60,000 bases of DNA. Source: Malacoraja senta (taxonomy: Eukaryota). The first letter of the stretch is position 1; the number at the start of each line of letters is the position of its first letter. The translations under genes were made by a program, and so were the position numbers. The notes under the pieces were generated by a model. It was not told the DNA's origin. It saw only the letters and a list, made by a program, of their open reading frames with translations, and made no database searches. Of this stretch, positions 2,673 to 56,635 are shown in pieces. The stretch covers positions 4,962,001 through 5,022,000 of the forward strand of contig CM075994.1 of assembly GCA_038087875.1 (NCBI GenBank), written 5' to 3'.

Positions 2673-5329
2673 ATTTCCTTCGCTCCATAGATGCTGCTGC
2701 ACCCGCTGTGTTTCTCCAGCATTTTTGTGTACCATCCATCTCGTGAACCTACGCTGCACTGCCTCAATCACAAGGATTTCATTCCTCAAATTAGGAGACC
2801 AAAACTGTACACAATACTCCAGATGTCGTCTCACTAGAGCCCTATACAACTGAAGACGAACCTCTTTACTCCTATACTGAAATCCTCTTGTTATGAAGGC
2901 CAACATTCCATTAGATTTCTTCACTGCCTGCTGTACCTACACGCCAACTTTCAGTGACCGGTGTAGAAGGACACCCAGGTCTCGCTGCACCTCGCTTACC
3001 TAACCTAACCCCATTGAGATAATAATCTGCCCCCTTGTTTTTGCCGCCAAAGTGGATAACCTCACATTTATCTATATTAAACTGCATCTGCCACGCATGT
3101 GCACACTCACTCAACCTGTCCAGATCTCCCTGCAACCTCCTAACATCCTCTTCACAGTTCACAGTGCCACCAAGCGTTGTGTTATCCGCAAACTTGCTAG
3201 TGTTGCTCCTAATTCCCTCTTCAAAATCATTAATATATAAGGTAAACAGTTGCGGCCCCAACACCGAGCCTTGCGGCACTCCACTCGCTACTGCCTGCCA
3301 TTCTGAACAGGACCCGTTCACTCCTACTCTTTGCTTCCGTTCTGCCAACCAATGTTCTATCCATCTCAACACCCTACCCCCAATATCATGTGCTCTAATT
3401 TTAGTCACCAGTCTCCCGTGCGGGAACTTATCAAAGGCTTTAAGAAAGTCTAGATAGACTACACCCTCTGGCACCCCTTCATCCATTTTACTTGACACAT
3501 CCTCAGAAAATTCCGGAAGATTAGTGAAGCATAATTTCCCTTTCATAAATACATGTTGACTTGGGCTAATCCTTTTACTGCAATCCAAATGACCAATTAT
3601 TACATCCTTAATAATTGACTCCAGCATCTCTCCCACCACGGAAGTCAGGCTAACCGGTCATGTAATTCCCCGTTTTCTCTCTCGCTCCTATCTTGAAAAG
3701 TGGGATAACATTAGCTATCCACCAATCCACAGGAACTGATCCTGAATCTATTGAACATTGGAAATGATCACCAATGCGTCCACTATTTCTAGGGCGACCT
3801 CCTTGAGGACCCTGGGATGCACACCATCAGCCCCAGGGGATTTATCATCCTTCATTCCCATTAGCCTACGCAATACTACTTGTCGCCTAATGAAAATGTA
3901 TTTAAGTTCCTCTACCCTCTTAGATCCCCTTTCCTCCAGTACATCTGGGAGATTGTTTGTGTCTTCCTTAGTGAAGACAGATCCGAAGTAGTTATTCAAT
4001 TCTTCTGCCATTTCCTTGTTGCCCATAATAATTTCACCCGTGTTTGCCTTCAAGGGACCCATATTTGACTTTGCTACTATTTCCCCCTGAACATATCTAA
4101 AGAAGCTTTTCCTGTCCTTCTTTATATTCAGGCCAGCTTCCCCTCGTACTTCATATTTTCAGCCCGTATTGCCCGTTTTGATTCATTCTGTTTTCCTATG
4201 AAAGTTTCCCAATCCTCTGGCTTCCGGCTACTCTTTGCTGTGTTATACTTCTTTTCTTTTAGTTTTATTCAATCCCTAACTTCGCTTGTCAGCCACGGTT
4301 GCCTCATACTCCCCTTAGAATCGTTCTTCCTTTTTGGAATGAAATGATCCTGCATCTCCAGCATTATGCCCAGAAATGCATGCCATTGTTGTTCCACCGT
4401 CATTCCTGCTAAGATACCTTTCCTGTCTACTTTGGCCAGCTCCCCTCTCATGCCTTCATAGTCCCCTTTGTTCAACAGCATCACTGCCACTTCCGATTTA
4501 ACGATCTCTTTCTCAAATTGAAGATTAAAACTAATCATATTATGATCACTACCTCCAAGCGGTTCCTTTACCTCGAGTTCTCTTTTCATATCTGGTTCAT
4601 TGGACAACACTAAATCCAGAATTTCCTTCTCTCTGGTCGGCTTCATTACAAACTGCTCTCAGAATCCATCTAGGAGGCATTCTACAAATTCTCTTTCTTG
4701 GGGTCCTGAACCAACCTGATTATCGCAGTCTACCTGCATATTGAAATCCCCCATCACCACAGTGGCATTACCTGTGTTACGTGCCAGTTTTAACTCCTGC
4801 TGCAACTTACACCCTGCACCCGGGCTACTATTTGGGGGTTTGTAAATAACACCAATTAGTGTCCTATTGCCTTTACAATTCCTCAACTCAATCCACAGTG
4901 ACTCTACCTCGTCAGTCCCTATGTCTTCCCTCGCAAGGGACTGAATTCCATCCCTCACCAGCAGAGCTACCCCCTCCTCTGCCCACCTGCCTGCCTTTTT
5001 ATTAGGATGTATAACCCTGAATATTAAGTTCCCTGGCTCTATCCTCCTGCAGCCACGTCTCAGTAAACCCACAATGTGATATCTGCCAACGTGTAACTGA
5101 GGCTCAAGCTCATCTCCTTTACTTCTTATACTTCGTGCATTCATATACAGTACAATTCCATTCGCATCTCACCTTTCACATCGCTCCCTATTAAACTAGG
5201 CCATATCTTCCTATCCCTTTGTAAGCTTCCTTTTCCGTTAATTCTGGGATCATTAACCATCCCCTTACTCTCTTTCCCTTTAACTCCATACTCGACTATT
5301 CCATTTGACACCGCACCCCTTTATTTCGT

Positions 5330-6249
5330 TCAAAACCACCTGTGTAGCAGTGCAAACCTGCCTGCCAGAATGTTGTTCCCCCACCTGTTAAGATACAATC
5401 CGTCCCTTTTGTACAGTTTCCCCTTACTCCAAAACATATCGCACTTATCTAAGAATCTAAATCCCTGCCCCCTGCACCAGTTCCTCAGCCACACATTCAG
5501 GTCCCGTATCTCCCTGTTCCTGTTCTCGTCAGCACGAGGAACTGGAAGCAAACCGGAGATAACAACCCTGAAGCTCCTGCTTTTCATCATTTTTCCGAGC
5601 TCTGTAAAGTCACGCTGCAGAATATTCATCCCCTTTTTCCCGACATCGTTTGTGCCGACATGCACTTCCACTTCCGGCTGTTCACCTTCCCCCTTGAGGA
5701 TTTTCTGCACTCTGTCCGTGACATCCTGGATCCTGGCACCAGGAAGGCAGCACACCATCCTCGAATCCCGTCTGTTGCCGCAGAAACCCCTGTCCTTACC
5801 TCTCACAATGGAGTCTCCAACTACAATGGCGTTCCCTGACGTTGGCCTCTTTGGTTTTGTCTCAACAGCCCTTTTTGCTTCGCAAGCCTGTCCGCCGCTC
5901 AGTGTGATAACGCATTCTGTCCCAGCGGCTTCTAAGTGGGCGATCCTGTTCACAAGATGTACAACACCCGCGGACCTTTGCATTACAAGTTTCCCTCCCT
6001 TTCTCACCGTCACCCACTTTCTCTCTTCCAGTACCTTATTTGTAACAATCTTACCGTAGGACTTGTCGAGGAACGACTCAGTTTCTCGAACGAACCTGAT
6101 GTCATCCACTTGATTCTCCAGTTCCCCAACACGGTCCTTCAGGAGCTGTACCTGGATGCACTTCTCTCCTTATAGCAGCCAGAGGCACCAGCAGTGTCCT
6201 TGATCTCCCACATACTGCAAGCATCACACTGAATCAGCTTGCCTGACAT
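5330..6249 (-). pseudogene. CR1 ORF1 (zinc-finger/leucine-zipper + SGNH esterase)
   Basis: Starts MSGKLIQCDACSMW; contains IVVGDSIVRG, CCLPGARIQDV, VHVGTNDVG and YKRDGLYLN (GDSL/SGNH blocks). One frameshift lies near 6110-6140. Confidence 0.88.
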
Positions 6250-17547: not shown

Positions 17548-17618
17548 GGGTAGCTGGCGAATGTCGGGTTTCGCGATCGCAGTCACTGATAAGACGGTCA
17601 GTGACTGCCAGACGCCGT

Positions 17619-17850
17619 GGTTCCCGGGTAGGGGACATGCAGCAGACCAGTCGGGAGGTTTTCCCTCCGATATAAATATACACGCTGGGGTTCCCGGGTA
17701 GGGGACATACAGCAGACCGGTCGGGAGGTTTTCCCTCCGATATAAATATACACGCTGGGGTTCCCGGGGAGGGGACATCCAGCAGACCGGTCGGGAGGTT
17801 TTCACTCCGATATAAATATACACGCTGGGGTTCCAGGGGAGGGGAAATCC
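17619..17850. repeat. 70-bp tandem repeat (~3.3 copies) within DIRS
   Basis: ttcccggg(t/g)aggggacat...ccgatataaatatacacgctgggg recurs at 17621, 17691, 17761 and 17831. Confidence 0.9.
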
Positions 17851-18155
17851 AGTAGTAATGCGGCTCCCAGATGAAGGGGTCCCCAGGATAGGGGATAAAT
17901 AGACCAGAACAGTCAAATCTGGTGCCGGAAGGGTTTCCCTCCGGGAAGGCAAATAGACGCTGGGATTCCCCGGCAGGGGGAATTCAGCAGGAATGAGGTG
18001 CCCAGACCGCAATGGTCCCCAGGATATGGGGTAAACGGCCCAAAATGGTCAACCGTTGTGCCGGGAGGTTTCCCTTCCGGTAATAAGAACATTTGGAGGT
18101 TAGCCAGGAGGGAGCTCCATCTAGATACACTCCAACAGCAGGAGTTAGGTCAGGG

Positions 18156-18630
18156 GCCTTGGACAGGGCTGCTTAATGGGGATACCGAGCCTGCGGCAGT
18201 GTTGGGCATATGGGAGAGTCCGCGCCAGCAGCGCCTTGGACAGGGCTGCTTAATGGGGATACCGAGTCTGCGGCAGTGTTGGGCATATGGGATAGCCCGC
18301 GCCAGCAGCGCCTTGGACAGGGCTGCTTAATGGGGATGCCAAGTCTATGGCAGTGCCGGCCTATGGTAGAGGCCGCGCCAGCAGCGCCTTCTTACAGGGC
18401 TGCTTAATGGGGATCCCGAATCTATGGCAATGCCGGCCTATGAGAGAGGCCGCACCAGAAGCGCCTTGTAATAGGGCTGCTTAATGTATGGCAACAGCAC
18501 CTGTAGTAGGGCTGCATAATATCTCCCTCAATGGAGGAGGTAAGCTTACCGAGGCAGTTTTATTCTGACCCTGAAGGGTGGGCCAATTGGAGAGGCCGCG
18601 CCAGCAGCGCCTTGTAACAGGGCTGATTAA
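18156..18630. repeat. 77-bp tandem repeat (~4-5 copies plus partial units) within DIRS
   Basis: gccttggacagggctgcttaatgggga...ccgcgccagcagc recurs with a 77-bp period (ggacaggg at 18161, 18238, 18315; diverged copies beyond). Confidence 0.88.
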
Positions 18631-40254: not shown

Positions 40255-40496
40255 GTGACACAATTTCACAATACAAGCACATGTTTGGAAGAAAAAAAAA
40301 TCAGTTCTACTTGAATGGATGTCCCAAATGCTGCGAAGACAGTTTAATTTCTTCAAACTTTCAGAAAACGTTCTCGTGACACAATTTCACAATACAAGCA
40401 CATGTTTGGAAGAAAAAAAAATCAGTTCTACTTGAATGGATGTCCCAAATGCTGCGAAGACAGTTTAATTTCTTCAAACTTTCAGAAAACGTTCTC
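40255..40496. repeat. Perfect 121-bp tandem duplication
   Basis: gtgacacaatttcacaatacaagc...cagaaaacgttctc starts at 40255 and again at 40376, with no differences seen. Confidence 0.92.
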
Positions 40497-42230: not shown

Positions 42231-42695
42231 GTCTCATTGACAGACTGTCAATGATTATATTCGGTGATTATATTCGGAGATAAAATTAAATATGAGCACC
42301 TTACTGTAGTGCATGAGCAATTCAATGCTGCAGCGTACCAATAAATGTGCAAGCTGCAATTCGTCAATTCGTTGGGATTTTCATGACTAATTGTGCATGC
42401 ATTGTCTTCCCAAATTGACTAATTTTCCAAAATTGAATACTTGCAAGAGTACGGACGAACTTTACCAACGGCAGATTACGTGGCCCACATACCTTATGAA
42501 ACCACCATCAAATGTGACACAACATATTTATTGTATACACAAAATATAAATTGTTGTAAAACCCTTGAGTTTCTAATATGCTCCGTCAACATGCAGCATT
42601 ATTTTTTTATGACTGAATTACCAAAATTGTGTAAGTTGGCATATGTCGCAGAATAAATAATATGTAGAAAATGTTTTTCCCCAGATCCGTACTAG

Positions 42696-42853
42696 TTTTA
42701 GGTATGTGATATGACTGGCATATGTGATGTCTTGTGCAAGTACACATGCGCAGGGGAGACTCAAGTGGGCGACCTGGAATAAAGAAGCTTGTTAGTGTAC
42801 TCCCGTGTGCGCTTGTTATTTTAAGTATGTTCCAAGCACCCAAATACACAACA
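42696..42853 (+). repeat. 5' LTR
   Basis: Direct repeat of 46478-46635; contains AATAAA, ends in CA, and the initial TG has drifted to TT. Confidence 0.92.
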
Positions 42854-42855
42854 AT

Positions 42856-42867
42856 TGGCGACGAGGA
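42856..42867 (+). promoter_or_regulatory. Primer-binding site, complementary to the 3' end of tRNA-Ser(GCT)
   Basis: TGGCGACGAGGA lies 2 nt after the 5' LTR. Vertebrate tRNA-Ser(GCT) ends ...TCCTCGTCG-CCA (recalled, not searched). Confidence 0.8.
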
Positions 42868-43169
42868 AGAAATAACAGAACATAAAAGAACAAGGACAGC
42901 AGAGAAAAACGAAAACAAGTAAAAAATACACGTTATATTTGGAAACAAAGTGGAACAGCACCAAGCAAAACGATTTGGCGCAAATTGATTTTGAATTGGC
43001 GCCAAAGAAAAAAAAAGTCGGAACGGGAAGCAAGAGCGCAGGGAAGCAATAGCGCAGGGGAGACAAGCGGGGCAGTAAGGGTCACCGAGCGCAGCTGGAA
43101 GCTAGGAGCGACGGTGTCAACTTACTTGGAATGTTTTCCAGGGATTTGCAGCCCACAGCCAGGCCAAGC

Positions 43170-43350
43170 AGCAACCATAGACGTCGGGTGAGGGCCAATT
43201 ACCGTGTAGGCCACGGACAGATCCGGAGAAGCCACCGACGAAAGAGGACCGTGTTGCCCAGGGCCAGCCCCAGTAGCAGCCACAGACGTCGGGTGAGGGC
43301 GTAATACAGTGTAGGCCACGGACAGGTCGTAGAAGCCACCGACGAAAGAC
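43170..43350. repeat. ~106-bp tandem duplication in the LTR element leader
   Basis: agcagc/aacca(t/c)agacgtcgggtgagggc...gtgtaggccacggacag...agaagccaccgacgaaag occurs twice. Confidence 0.8.
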
Positions 43351-44184
43351 GAGTCTTCAGCCCGGCCGGGGGCAGTCAGCCCGGTGGGGGGAGAAAGCGG
43401 AGAAAACCCGGTCGCGTGAGACGGCCGAGAGCAGATAACGCCCTGTCGTGAGAGAAAGCCGGCCGAGAGAGAAGCGGGTCCGCGCGAGAGAAGCGGGACA
43501 CAGTGCTTAGCCAGCCCCGACGGCGGGGCACAGTCGCGACGCTTGGAGTAGGGGAAACCAGCAGCAGAAACAAGCAGCGACTCACCTTCCGCAGGTTGTC
43601 CACGTGAGCCAGCGCCGAGCCGAACAGCGGGTCCAGTAGCAGCCGGGAGGGTTATGGAGCCAGCGGGCAGGCAAGTCGGCGGAGCAGCGAGAGTCGACTT
43701 GGTACCGAGCCAGAGGAGACAACAGCAACGGCTGAGCCAGCGGCAACGGCGGAGGTCCGGAATGGCCAGCAGTATTTAAAAGTAAATGTGAGGCCCGGGG
43801 GTGCCAGCGAAAGCACCAGCGACAGGCCCACAGGCCGACAAGCTGGACCGGTGAAATCCTTCACAATAAAAGCACTGTTGAATGTAATGCATTGTTCACT
43901 ATTTATTCGCAGTAAAAGCAGGACTGTTTGGATGTAATGCATTGGTCACTGTTATTAATAGTAAATCTGTGAGCATAGCAGGAATATGGTTTAAAATGTA
44001 CTAGTTGGTTATTAACCTTAAATGTTGGTTATTAGTATAAATCTATTATTATATGATTCAGTAATAGTCAGAGTGCTGGATAATCTTTAGCATGTAAAAG
44101 GATTAAGTCCAGGGCAGAAAACACAGCTAGAGAACAGAATATAGTGCACCTGAATAGCAACAGGTAACATGGGTATTCAAATGG

Positions 44185-44430
44185 AAGGAAAGTTGCCCAG
44201 TTAGAGTCTGGGTGTAATTTTGAGAAACGTACTGATGTCTTGGAGGCTTCGTTGATTTCCAATGATATCACTGCAGAGGAGAAGTAGAGAGCATGGTTCA
44301 TATTAGCCTTAGGAAGAGAGGGTTATCAAACCTTACGTACGTTACTGCGGCCTGCAAAGCCCACGGCTAAAACGTACGATGAGTGTAAGGAGGCATTTAT
44401 GGCTCATTTATTGCCAAAACCTCCAAGTGC
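44185..44430 (+). pseudogene. Gypsy gag N-terminal fragment
   Basis: LISNDITAEEK*RAWFILALGREGYQTLRTLLRPAKPTAKTYDECKEAFMAHLLPKP fits the typical fish Gypsy gag N-terminus, with one in-frame stop. Confidence 0.8.
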
Positions 44431-44574
44431 ATCGAGAGGCAAGGAGCTTGAACTAAAGAGGGCAGTGAGTCCCTCAAAGGAAAAAGGTAAAGTGAAAAGT
44501 GACGAAGGTCAAGTGCAAACGGCTAAAGGTCAAAGGCAAAGTGACAAAAGTCGTGCCAAGTCACGAAGTTCAAG

Positions 44575-45530
44575 TGCAAAAGGCGTACCGTCCATACAGG
44601 GCAATGAGATTGGCAGCTATAATAGTACAGACCCATTATATGGCACAGCTTCAAATGGAAAGTGATCGCAAAACTTACATGAAGGTACGCAGCATCGTTG
44701 TGCTGCTTCAGGCTGCCTACCGAGGAATGGTTGTTCGAATGCAATAGCGGTGTATGCACAAATCTGCAAAGGTCATACAGACTTATTATTAGATGCATAT
44801 ACAGCATCAGTATTTCAAGAAACTACGCTGGTCTGCCATTGCGGTACAGCAACGATACAGAGATTGACAGATAAGAGATGTCCAAGTGAGACATTATAAT
44901 AATTTGAGAATAGCAGTGGTTTGTATTCAGGCCTTCTATCGCGGAATTAAATCCAGAGAATTGGTTGAGAAAATCAAGGCAGCACGCCATAGTAAGTCAT
45001 TCATAATGTTGTGCATTACAAGAACACGTTTATTGATGCAAAAGGCGTCTGTAGTCACTCTGCAAGCTGCATACCGTGGTTACCGATCAAAGTGTACGCT
45101 ACAGAGCTATGCGACAAGCAGTCATTTCGATCCAGAGATGGTAAAAAGCATGCAAAATAGGGCATTCCCAGTTTGTGCAATACCAGTCAATGAGGTATGC
45201 AACGATTACCATTCAGGCTGCCTACAAGACTATGGTGGTTAGGCAGTGGGTTAAGCAAAAGAGAGCTACTATAGAAGTGCAGTCAGTATTCCGTATGAAT
45301 TGATATAGGAAAGACTTAAGAAGACAAATAGATGCACAACACAAAAGGCTTAAACGATACAAAAGGCATAAAAGATATAGGAACGAATTCCTCAAACAGA
45401 AATATACAGCAATTGCAGCGCAGTCTCATTACCGTGCTTATGAAGCAAGAAAACTATACAGAGCACAAATCAAAGCCACTGTTGTATTGCAAAGACAATA
45501 TAGATCCTACTTCTTGATGAAAAACCAGAA
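44575..45530 (+). pseudogene. ASPM: Captured ASPM-like IQ-repeat coding fragment (stops/frameshifts)
   Basis: Translates to YRAMRLAAIIVQTHY...VVLLQAAYRGMVVR...MHKSAKVIQTYY*MH...YFKKLRWSAIAVQQRYRD...RHYNNLRIAVVCIQAFYRGIKSR...SVVTLQAAYRG, then YRAMRQAVISIQRW...ATITIQAAYK and ATVVLQRQYRSY. These are about a dozen tandem IQ motifs with the spacing of the ASPM IQ array. Confidence 0.82.
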
Positions 45531-46119
45531 AGGTGACAAGAATACAAATAGATTAACAACAGAAAAGCTTAAACGGTACAAAGAACGGTGAAATAAATGT
45601 GTGACATTGATTAAAAAGCTGCTAATAGAAAAGTCTAAAGAAGAGAGGCTTGTCGGTTAAGACAAAAGTATGCAAGACCGATTGCGATTAGGACACTTCA
45701 CTATAGTCCAGCATGGAGCCTACTTCACTGAGCAATGGACAAATGGTTATGCATTGCAGAATCTTATTAAAGAACAAAAGCGCAGATAAATACGCAGCGA
45801 ATGGAAATTGAACAACAGAGGAAGTTGCTAGAAAGTGAAATCTTGCAGCCATGGGTCAGATCCCACATACAAAGAGGAAAACAAAGCAAATACATGAACC
45901 AGAAAATGAAACGCAGAACATCAGGAACAGGAAGAAATTTGCAAATTAGATTAGGACATTTAAAAAGGGAAGAATCAGAGATACAGGCAGAGCTAGAGCG
46001 ATTAGAAAATGTTCGCAATTTACACATAAAGTAACGGGAAATGATAACACATAAAGCAAGGAGTAATGTATTTGGTTTAAGGAGGATGGGTGGAATGAAA
46101 ACATGATGTACTGGTTTAG

Positions 46120-46345
46120 AGAGGATTATTACAGTTATGAGGATGTATTGAAAGATGAATGTAATAATACCATTTTCCAACAGTGTATTAATCAATTATA
46201 TTTTACGTAAAGACCATATTACCGTGGGTTAGAAATGATTATTACAGGTATGGGGATGTATTGTGAGATGATTGTAATAATAGAATTGTGCAACAGTGTA
46301 TTAATCAATGATATGTTAGGTAAAGAGCATATACCGTGCAGGTGA
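46120..46345. repeat. Two-copy ~115-bp tandem repeat in the 3' internal region of the LTR element
   Basis: gattattacag...ggatgtattg..agatga.tgtaataata...caacagtgtattaatcaat...gtaaaga.catat occurs at ~46123 and ~46238. Confidence 0.8.
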
Positions 46346-46351
46346 AATTGA

Positions 46352-46477
46352 GTTAAAGGGGGAGGAGTGCGATGTATATAATATAAATGCTATCACCTGC
46401 CTCCAAGTTAAAGGGGGAGGAGTGCGTTGTATGTAATAGAAATGGTGTTAACTGCCTCCAAGTTAACGAGGGGGGGG
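46352..46477 (+). promoter_or_regulatory. Polypurine tract, triplicated
   Basis: agttaaagggggaggag (46352), agttaaaggggggaggag (46406) and agttaacgagggggggg (46461), the last abutting the 3' LTR TG. Confidence 0.8.
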
Positions 46478-46635
46478 TGTTCGGTATGTGACATTATTAG
46501 CATATGTGATGTCTTGTGCACGTACGCATGCGCAGGGGAGACTCCAGGTGGCGTCCGGGAATAAAGAAGCGTGTTAGTGTACTCCCGTGTCCGAGTGTTA
46601 TTTTAAGTGTGTTCCAAGGACCCAAATACACAACA
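46478..46635 (+). repeat. 3' LTR
   Basis: TG...CA direct repeat of 42696-42853. Confidence 0.92.
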
Positions 46636-47164
46636 ACTATATGCATTTCTTTATTCAGAGATTGAATAATGCAGAAGATTTTTTGTGTGAGGAAGCAGAT
46701 GAGCTCCCACGTGACTGCTTCGAGTTGGTCCACATTCAATAACTCATCGGCCATCTAAGATGAATATGATTCTATCGTCACGGTTTTATTAAGTACGCGC
46801 GCAATTGAAAACAATTAACTATATGTGTTCCCCAACAGGAAGCCACTGAAAAACCGTAAGATCAATTACATGCGAAATTGCAAGTCTCTGGCGTTCAGGG
46901 TGGATAAACTTGTCCTGCACAATTAATCGAGATTTAATGTTTCAACGCAAGGGATGTCAAGACACAATAGAGAACAAAGTTAAAGGCCTTGCCTAATTTT
47001 GCGGACAAGTCTTGATGGTGGCAAGATTGCATGGTATAGTGGGATACCAAATGACCTCGATCAGCATCACTTGCAACATCGCATCCCTCACCGAAGAACT
47101 TTGAACTGAAAGTCGGGAGGTGGCATGACATCAATTCACCCGACTGGTTAGGATGTATAGAATC

Positions 47165-54364: not shown

Positions 54365-55290
54365 CTTGGGGGTGATTGGTTCGAAACAAAGCACAGCAAA
54401 TGGTTGGTTTGAAACAAACCACAGCAAATGTTTGGTGGTGGTTGGTTTGAAACAAAGCACAGCAATAGGTTGGCGATGGTTGGTTTGAAGCATAGCACAG
54501 TAAATAGTTGGTGGTGGTAGCTTTGAAAAAGCACAGCAAATGGTTGGTGGTGGTTCGTTTGAAACAAAATACAGCAAATGGTTGGTGGTGGTTGGTTTGA
54601 AACAAAGCACAGCAAATGATTGGGGGTGGTTCATATGAAACAAAGTACAGCAAATGGCTGGTGGTGGTTGGTTTGAAACAACACACAGCAAATGGTTGGG
54701 GTGGTTCGTATGAAACAAAGTACAGCAGATGATTGGTGTTGGTTCGTATGAAACAAAGCACAACAAATGGTTGGTGGTGAATGGTGTGAAATAATGCACA
54801 GAAAATGGTTGGCGGTGGTTGGTTTGAAACAAGGCACAGCAAATGGTTGTGGTGGTTCGTTCGAAACAAAGCACAGCAAATGTTGGTGGTGGTTCGTTTG
54901 AAACAAAGCACAGCAAACGGTTGGTGGTGGTTGGTTTGAAACAAAGCACAGCAAATGCTTGGTGGTGGTTGGTTTGAAAAAAAGCACAGCAAATGGTTGG
55001 TGGTAGATGGTTTGAAACAAAGCACAGCAAATGGTTGCTGGTAGGTGGTTTGAAACAAGGCGCATGAAATGACTGGTGGTGGTTGGTTTTCAACATTGCA
55101 TAGCAAGTGGTTGGTGGTGGTTGGTTTGAAACAAAGCACAGCAAATGATTGGTGTTGGTTGATTGGAAATAAAGCACAGCAATGGTAGGGGTGGTTGCTT
55201 TGAAACAAAGCACAGCAAATGGTCGGTGGTGGTTGGTTTCAAACAAAGCACATTAAATGGTTGGTGGTGGATGGTTTGAAGCGGCAAATG
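54365..55290. repeat. ~38-bp minisatellite (tggttggtggtggttggtttgaaacaaagcacagcaaa)n
   Basis: Roughly two dozen diverged tandem units, visible directly. Confidence 0.95.
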
Positions 55291-55559: not shown

Positions 55560-56635
55560 TCAACCCAAACCCCCCAAACAACCATTTGCAGGCCGTGCCG
55601 TTTCACTTCAACCCAAACCCCCCAAAACAACCATTTGCAGGCAGTGCCTTTTGACTTCAACCCCAACCCCCCAAACAACCATTTGCTGTCAGTGCCTTTT
55701 CACTTCAACCCAAACCCCCCAAATAACCATTTGCGGGCAATGCCTTTTCACTTCAACCCAAACCCCCCAAACAACCATTTGCAGGCAGTGCCTTTTCACT
55801 TCAACCCAAACCCCCGAAACAACCATTTGCAGGCTGTGCCTTTTCATTCAACCCAAACCCCCCAAACAACTGTTTGCAGACAGTGCCTTTTCACTTCAAA
55901 CCAACCGCCCAAAAGAACCATTTGCAGGCAGTGACTTTTCACTTCAACCCAACCCCCCCCCCCCGAACAACCATTTGCAGGCAGTGCCTTTTCACTTCAA
56001 CCCGAACCCTCCAAACAACCATTTGCAGGCAGTGTCTTTTCACTTCAACCCAAACCCCCCAAACAACCATTTGCAGCCAGTGCCTTTGTACTTCAGCCCA
56101 AACCCCTCAAACAAACATTTGCAGGCAGTGCCTTTTCATTCAACCCAAACCCCCAAAACAACTATTTACAGGCAGTGCATTTTCACTTCAACCCAAACCC
56201 CCCAAATAACCATTTGCAGGCCGTGCCTTTTCACTTCAACCCAACCCCCCAATAAAACATTTGCAGGCAGTGCCTTTTCACTTCAACCCAACCACCCCAA
56301 AACAACCATTTGCAGGCAGTGCCTTTTGACTTCAACCCCAACCCCCCAAACAACCATTTGCTGTCAGTGCCTTTTCACTTCAACCCAAACCCCCCAAATA
56401 ACCATTTGCGGGCAGTGTCGTTTCACTTCAACCCAAATCCCCCCAAAAAACATTTGCAGGCAGTGCCTTTTTACATCAACCCAAACCCCCCAAACAACCA
56501 TTTGCAGGCAGTGCCTTTTTACTTCAACCCAATCCCCCACAAACAACCATTTGCAGGCAGTACCTTTTTCCTTCAACTCAAACCCCCCAAACAAACATTT
56601 GCAGGCAGTGCCTTTTTACTTCAAACCAACCATAT
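55560..56635. repeat. ~48-bp minisatellite (cttcaacccaaaccccccaaacaaccatttgcaggcagtgccttttca)n
   Basis: About 22 tandem units; explains the repetitive ORF at 55495-56673. Confidence 0.95.

Follow-up and report, generated by a model that had tools for sequence, protein, structure and literature searches.

Partial pieces of host mRNA lying within a discontinuous long terminal repeat (LTR) element, with short similarity at the switch points, were described as LTR-mediated retrocopies by Tan et al. in 2016 (PMC5131818), whose account also includes several parent genes at one locus, sense orientation and further rounds of retroposition. The maize element Bs1, as presented in the same paper, carries pieces of several host genes in a chimeric frame with switch points common to all copies, and the avian leukaemia virus E26, as far as described in PMC5907674, encodes a Gag-MYB-Ets protein in which a truncated gag is fused in frame to two host genes. 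Here we describe an element comparable to these from the skate Malacoraja senta. It lies at positions 42696-46635 of a 60,000-nucleotide stretch (assembly GCA_038087875.1, contig CM075994.1, positions 4,962,001 to 5,022,000 of the forward strand; hereafter the window), where a sequence-only reading had seen a pol-less LTR retrotransposon with an ASPM IQ-repeat array behind its gag. The insert is made of two host genes, ASPM and a Tousled-like kinase (TLK), and in natural copies the gag start and its cargo form a continuous reading frame; the chimera arose once from a Gypsy-type parent and amplified with target duplications. We put at about 0.6 the probability that this is a helper-dependent template-switch element whose frame would have been kept open by the better propagation of RNA that was translated and free of stops, the residues encoded mattering little.

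The first cargo occupies 44585-45531 (+) and carries about 12 IQ-like motifs in the sense strand; elsewhere in the 60 kb there are stray single matches only. Pfam IQ matches were obtained in four of nine fragments scanned. In the window copy the array is interrupted by several stops and one frameshift near 45093. The array had been placed at 44575-45530, and its dozen sense motifs stand, with the difference that 44575-44584 belongs to a neighboring 21-nt repeat. Its attribution to ASPM held: the named top protein matches are all ASPM, and a source in some other IQ protein was rejected because the best matches are ASPM; chance IQ-like composition was likewise rejected. The residues captured correspond to Amblyraja ASPM ~2852-3141 in the window copy and 2802-3141 in undeleted copies, an internal deletion at 44584/44585 having removed the first two IQ motifs here. 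The ASH and CH domains, the C-terminal region and the exon structure of the ASPM gene are absent from the element, and a functional ASPM gene was rejected since only residues 2802-3141 are present. In native shark and ray ASPMs a block of 219 residues within the IQ region recurs in varying numbers, and the capture begins in the last repeat.

The donor can be traced to a skate. Over 215 residues, copy L008 is 42-45% identical to the ASPMs of turtle, lungfish and sturgeon, 53-61% to those of chimaera, sharks and electric ray, 65-68% to those of stingrays, mantas and sawfish, and 78-79%, ungapped, to those of two skates. In ASPM trees the element copies group together in a single clade (100/100), which falls among the skate ASPMs (100/99). 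Amblyraja is favored as its sister (99; 94/88), and the alternative that puts the two skates together is not rejected (approximately unbiased test, p 0.064). Because all compared copies have identical junctions, there was one capture, followed by amplification of the element.

From the IQ array the frame runs on into a second cargo, the coiled-coil region of a Tousled-like kinase (45532-46034, +), and ends before the kinase domain; in the window copy this piece has stops and frameshifts. Copy L010 matches human TLK2 (PDB 5O0Y, chain 5O0Y_A) over residues 68-168 and 233-252 with an E value of 1.1e-45, and the window piece is 81% and 63% identical to that copy. A search of the ESM Atlas with the TLK piece gave no usable match. 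By its residues, the donor is presumably TLK2 rather than TLK1. Exon 12 of TLK2 comprises 22 codons, and between the two anchors the longest TLK copy falls 23 codons short of the 5O0Y construct, which fits loss of that exon. In human TLK2 the captured stretch starts in exon 9, according to a primer table, and the alternative exon 12 is described as skipped in the main isoforms (PMC13095609). Assuming conserved intron positions, the piece is apparently intronless and would derive from spliced mRNA. The argument for mRNA rests on this piece, because the ASPM capture lies within the one large exon that holds the ASPM IQ array and so cannot by itself demonstrate such an origin. The proposed transduction of a host mRNA is supported by the ASPM matches and by the fixed junctions across the family; it was incomplete as to the insert, which comes from two genes and not one.

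The junction between the two captures carries further evidence. Contigs from public sequencing runs depart from the element exactly at this point: two continue into native ASPM, and two, both of one run, arrive as native TLK. About 4 bases there, read from contigs of other organisms, are common to both donors, as expected for a template switch (PMC5131818). Neither donor gene was recovered from the 1.94-Gb assembly, where six queries for native ASPM (Pfam ASH; bird, eel, stingray and skate protein stretches; a DNA motif) and two motifs for native TLK found none, the two matches of the second TLK motif being unrelated repeats; the control, RAG1, was found. The missing genes probably reflect an incomplete assembly and not gene loss.

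The family is large. All 40 candidates scored in a DNA search with the IQ stretch (the best 40 of 260) were full-length matches at 88-92%, the window copy included, and a protein search gave 151 matches from the best 150 scored of 481 candidates. For a 22-nt motif spanning the ASPM/TLK junction there are 170 occurrences (at most 2 mismatches), whereas its reversed control has a single one. In some copies the junction is present twice, and some occurrences are assembly or segmental duplicates; the family comprises roughly 150-170 or more loci. Where intact, the order of parts at 29 other loci is that of the window copy. The feared single later retrocopy insertion was rejected, the segment standing at the same junctions throughout a large family. 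Segmental duplication as the main cause was also rejected, since homologous flanks occur only in L065, L066 and L067, 5'-truncated copies that are segmental duplicates and not separate insertions. Four further loci (L040, L049, L051 and L052) are head-to-tail tandem elements with one common LTR, the polypurine tract preceding the LTR.

Among 41 longer stretches examined, 13 other IQ-bearing copies have an LTR pair, with Kimura two-parameter (K2P) distances of 0.006-0.046, and perfect 5-bp target duplications were seen in four other copies; most of the others were unresolved or tandem. The LTRs of the window copy are identical at 139 of 158 bases (K2P 0.13), which places it among the oldest of the family. 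It is an old, dead insertion, in which gag and IQ are not in one frame and no poly(A) was seen. The family has the Ty3/Gypsy features of two direct LTRs (TG...CA), a tRNA primer site, a polypurine tract and a 5-bp target duplication. In the window copy the 5' LTR (42696-42853, +, 158 bp) has lost its terminal TG, which reads TT. It is followed by a primer binding site (42856-42867, +), whose 12 nt can pair with the 3' end of a tRNA-Ser(GCT) gene (L086) from this genome, where several other copies have 18 nt. At the other end, a polypurine tract (46466-46477, +) precedes the 3' LTR (46478-46635, +; TG...CA), and the flanks ACTAG (42691-42695) and ACTAT (46636-46640) agree in four of five bases. 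Sequence and domain scan together bear out the pol-less element with near-matching flanks: no reverse transcriptase, RNase H, integrase or protease was found between the LTRs in the three forward frames, and the identical scan detects them in two related elements.

Those relatives identify the type of the parent. Among 20 gag matches fetched for context, three (L070, L071 and L072, on contigs C5707, C4214 and C5966) are of gag-pol type; all three have a tRNA-Ser primer site as in the chimeric family, and L070 and L071 sit in low-complexity, CT-rich flanks. A scan of these two detects broken protease, reverse transcriptase, RNase H and integrase domains, arranged as in Gypsy elements, and the start of their gag matches Pfam Retrotrans_gag, PNMA and DUF7041, all below the cut-offs. 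They share with the chimeric family the LTR, the primer site, the first ~85 gag codons and the 3' untranslated region at 68-77% identity (70-77% for the LTR). In the window copy, this gag piece lies at 44169-44427 (+); its frame shifts near 44190 and meets a stop near 44285. A gag N-terminus had been read at 44185-44430; its identity was borne out, and the ATG lies at 44169. The piece would be the N-terminal part of the capsid. A structure model of the gag has four helices at low confidence (predicted local distance difference test, pLDDT, 53); a fold search with it reached a best Z of 4.1, and a profile search of the PDB gave no match. The 3' untranslated region (46039-46465, +), with 113-bp and 55-bp duplications, is 68-73% identical to the region after pol in L070 and L071. 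The chimera thus leaves the parent inside the capsid and rejoins it directly after the end of pol, so that the cargo stands in place of the remaining gag and the whole of pol. Parental pol extends up to the 3' untranslated region, with no room for env.

Between the primer site and the ATG, a leader (42868-44168, +) includes a GC-rich block (~43050-43850; 63% GC; 70 CpG) that is also found in other family copies and that for the most part has no match in the gag-pol relatives. After the gag codons, a short in-frame linker (44428-44475, +) differs from the parent gag and is without a PDB match. Both the block and the linker are largely absent from the gag-pol relatives, and either could be a third captured piece. 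The linker gives way to a 21-nt tandem repeat of seven codons (44476-44584, +), present in 1 to more than 20 units across copies. Its unit resembles the ASPM residues directly before the IQ match, and the repeat is probably the amplified 5' end, that is, the first seven codons, of the ASPM capture.

Without any reconstruction, the natural copies L002, L008, L011 and L023 are open from the gag start through the repeats into the IQ array over 314-395 codons, and in many natural copies the gag, IQ and TLK matches lie in one frame. Of 36 scorable copies, 21 have gag and IQ in a common frame (12 of 15 young, 3 of 4 intermediate and 6 of 17 old), and the lesions differ among the 15 copies in which they are not; the frame continues from IQ into TLK in 35 of 36. 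In 21 of 25 copies the TLK linker has a length divisible by three, which falls into four classes. A 72-nt in-frame insert within the IQ array (45313-45384 in the window, +), largely a copy of the TLK start and visible as a 24-residue gap against all ASPMs, has conserved spacing in 26 of 30 scorable copies and was inherited in frame; judged by match length, L053 and L079 lack it. Among the 150 best gag matches no copy is open throughout, and the longest gag-containing frame without an internal stop has 482 residues. The suspicion that this is a multi-copy family with an ancestral Gag-IQ fusion was borne out in the natural copies and also in the little skate, where the predicted RefSeq model XP_055489032.1 ('ASPM homolog isoform X1') consists of the gag start, the 7-residue repeats and IQ, and is 81% identical to L008. 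This model is a mis-annotated element copy and evidence for the family in the little skate as well. Two public sequencing runs (X4 and X6), whose RNA nature is only guessed, gave no cover of gag.

Evidence that the open frame mattered comes from the distribution of stops. The counts exclude exact duplicates of one place, one of each near-identical pair (L004, L019, L047) and the rearranged L026, with masking of columns 267-290 in IQ and of those past 98 in TLK; the sample was partly picked for long open frames, which lowers terminal stop counts and may hide broken subfamilies. In 47 copies there are 76 stop codons of 72 origins, one of which, at a CpG site, falls on a weakly supported inner branch. 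By branch length, 9.1 inner-branch stops were expected and 1 was seen (P 0.001); well-supported inner branches have 0 against 4.6 expected (P 0.010), and without TGA stops the inner branches have 0 against 5.1 (P 0.006). Stop codons are therefore scarce on inherited branches. Amino-acid constraint is weak or absent. Because inherited stops are scarce, the source RNA was probably translated and breakage of the frame would have lowered success. Having spread to well over a hundred places, the element probably benefited from its hybrid frame.

We infer template switching, copying by a helper and translation of the source RNA. Within a particle of the parent, reverse transcriptase would have left the element RNA after ~85 gag codons, moved onto ASPM mRNA for ~1 kb and onto spliced TLK mRNA for ~0.5 kb, and then switched back to the parent RNA directly after the end of pol. 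The product would have retained its LTRs, tRNA-Ser primer site and polypurine tract and been copied by helper gag-pol elements, its source copies keeping a single open frame from the gag start through the repeats and IQ array to the TLK coil. Pressure would have acted mostly on openness of the frame and little on residues. Its simplest cause may be survival of the RNA by escape from nonsense-mediated decay; another simple cause may be loose co-assembly of the gag-tagged product with helper Gag.

Several results weigh against this reading. The strictest form of the stop test, without TGA and on well-supported branches, has 0 stops against 2.6 expected and is not significant (P 0.076), and CpG decay after insertion is unlike change on source branches. 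Comparison of subfamilies gives a net ratio of nonsynonymous to synonymous substitution (dN/dS) of 1.16 (0.44-4.26) in gag and 0.71 (0.33-1.64) in IQ, not below the within-group baseline of 0.7-0.9; it is lowest for TLK (0.28, P 0.021), and nominal P<0.05 was reached in only two of 11 contrasts, TLK and the whole frame (P 0.047). Differences from skate ASPM shared by the copies are weakly depleted at invariant sites (4/98 versus 17/172, P 0.10), a comparison that includes native evolution. In the older group gag and IQ remain in frame in only 6 of 17 copies, and the last third of the TLK piece is off its own frame, deleted or stopped in whole subfamilies. The in-frame junctions are one inherited event, not many. 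Finally, the gag-pol relatives found are broken and 23-30% diverged, which makes them doubtful candidates for the actual helper.

Much of this would be expected of a neutral passenger, in which the captured pieces are filler giving a packageable length and the continuous frame was luck at birth in short source lineages. The near-baseline dN/dS of gag and IQ, the short inner branches (0.151 versus 1.178 terminal), the decay of the TLK tail and the existence of derivatives without the captured insert (L073 and L078) all fit such a history. It leaves unexplained why the two junctions, the 21-nt unit, the 72-nt insert and the four linker lengths are all multiples of three and why so few stops were inherited, and we regard it as unlikely without being far-fetched.

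A more ambitious proposal credits the residues themselves. The fusion could be a new three-part protein, a capsid piece with a calmodulin-binding ASPM rod and a TLK dimerization coil, used for spread by tethering or by interfering with host ASPM/TLK complexes; put this broadly, the idea seems to us quite unlikely. In its specific form, where the capsid piece joins helper particles and the IQ rod and TLK coil tether them, in germ cells that are dividing, either to the spindle or to chromatin bearing TLK, it is more doubtful again. Whole modules were taken (the N-terminal part of the capsid, a flexible repeat, ~14 IQ motifs and a coiled coil without kinase), the coil has the lowest net dN/dS, and both ASPM and TLK act in cell division. 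The TLK2 coiled coil is also described as essential for dimerization (PMC13095609). Against a working protein stand the absence of amino-acid constraint on gag and IQ, the lack of a complete open copy among the best gag matches, and the consideration that both mRNAs may have been captured simply through their abundance in dividing germ cells. If true, the three-part protein would be for a transposon what a gag-onc fusion is for a retrovirus, with selection acting in the germ line.

That the captures act as RNA, with PIWI-interacting RNAs (piRNAs) of the element targeting ASPM and TLK or likeness to the genes shielding the element from silencing, is very improbable: the native-like contigs are ~88-91% identical to the insert, near the identity level of targeting in PMC13534243, but the precedent described there, in Drosophila telomeric elements, involves 140-235 bp pieces of piRNA-pathway genes and gives no reason for a long open frame.

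Outside the element, the window holds other repeats. Retroelement fragments were seen at 1292-2641 (+; GIY-YIG, Penelope-like), 2914-3657 (-; reverse transcriptase) and 5333-6169 (-; GDSL/OSK esterase ORF1, CR1-like). The stretches 54401-55280, 55560-56629, 17612-18486 and 40255-40496 are repeats, comprising 38-bp (23 copies) and 48-bp (22 copies) tandem arrays, 70-135 bp repeats and an exact 121-bp duplication. The 38-bp and 48-bp arrays contain long open low-complexity frames with no Pfam match.

Among known systems, the domesticated metaviral capsid genes PNMA and RTL resemble the skate element in having coding sequence derived from a Gypsy capsid, and the parent gag weakly matches Pfam PNMA; as described in PMC11011659, those genes lack LTRs and are under purifying selection, whereas the skate copies keep LTRs and are numerous and decaying. 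A domesticated capsid gene was accordingly rejected, in view of many LTR-flanked, decaying copies and a gag dN/dS of ~1 (best 150 of 549 gag candidates scored). The telomeric elements of Drosophila that carry fragments of nxf2, piwi or aub (PMC13534243) are an active lineage and, like the skate family, keep host gene fragments; as described there, they differ in being non-LTR elements with short non-coding fragments and piRNA action. A gag-onc transducing retrovirus of the E26 type was also rejected, the parent being Gypsy-type without room for env and the resemblance one of architecture only. E26 is an infectious retrovirus, selected somatically. The skate element, in contrast, belongs to Gypsy, lacks env and multiplied in the germ line, and its cargo is structural where that of E26 consists of transcription factors.

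Copies annotated as ASPM homologues, such as the little skate model, will confound work on skates that counts copies of ASPM and TLK, maps reads or scans for selection. In the literature covered, with Repbase, Dfam and subscription papers outside the search, we found no description of such an element, nor of two genes fused in frame and present in so many copies in the germ line of a vertebrate. The skate insert is partial host coding sequence flanked by discontinuous LTR-element sequence, as in the retrocopies of Tan et al. Those described in PMC5131818 are single or few loci, whereas the skate family has ~170 junction copies, several subfamilies and a fusion to its own gag frame; Bs1 is given there as one to five copies with one insert out of frame, whereas the skate family is vertebrate, far more numerous, and has both inserts in frame. 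Gene capture by animal LTR elements usually involves one or a few loci. A double capture in frame with gag, carried through several subfamilies and ~170 loci, makes the benefit of captured coding sequence testable on a real phylogeny. The mechanism is known from LTR-mediated retroposition, maize Bs1 and avian E26.

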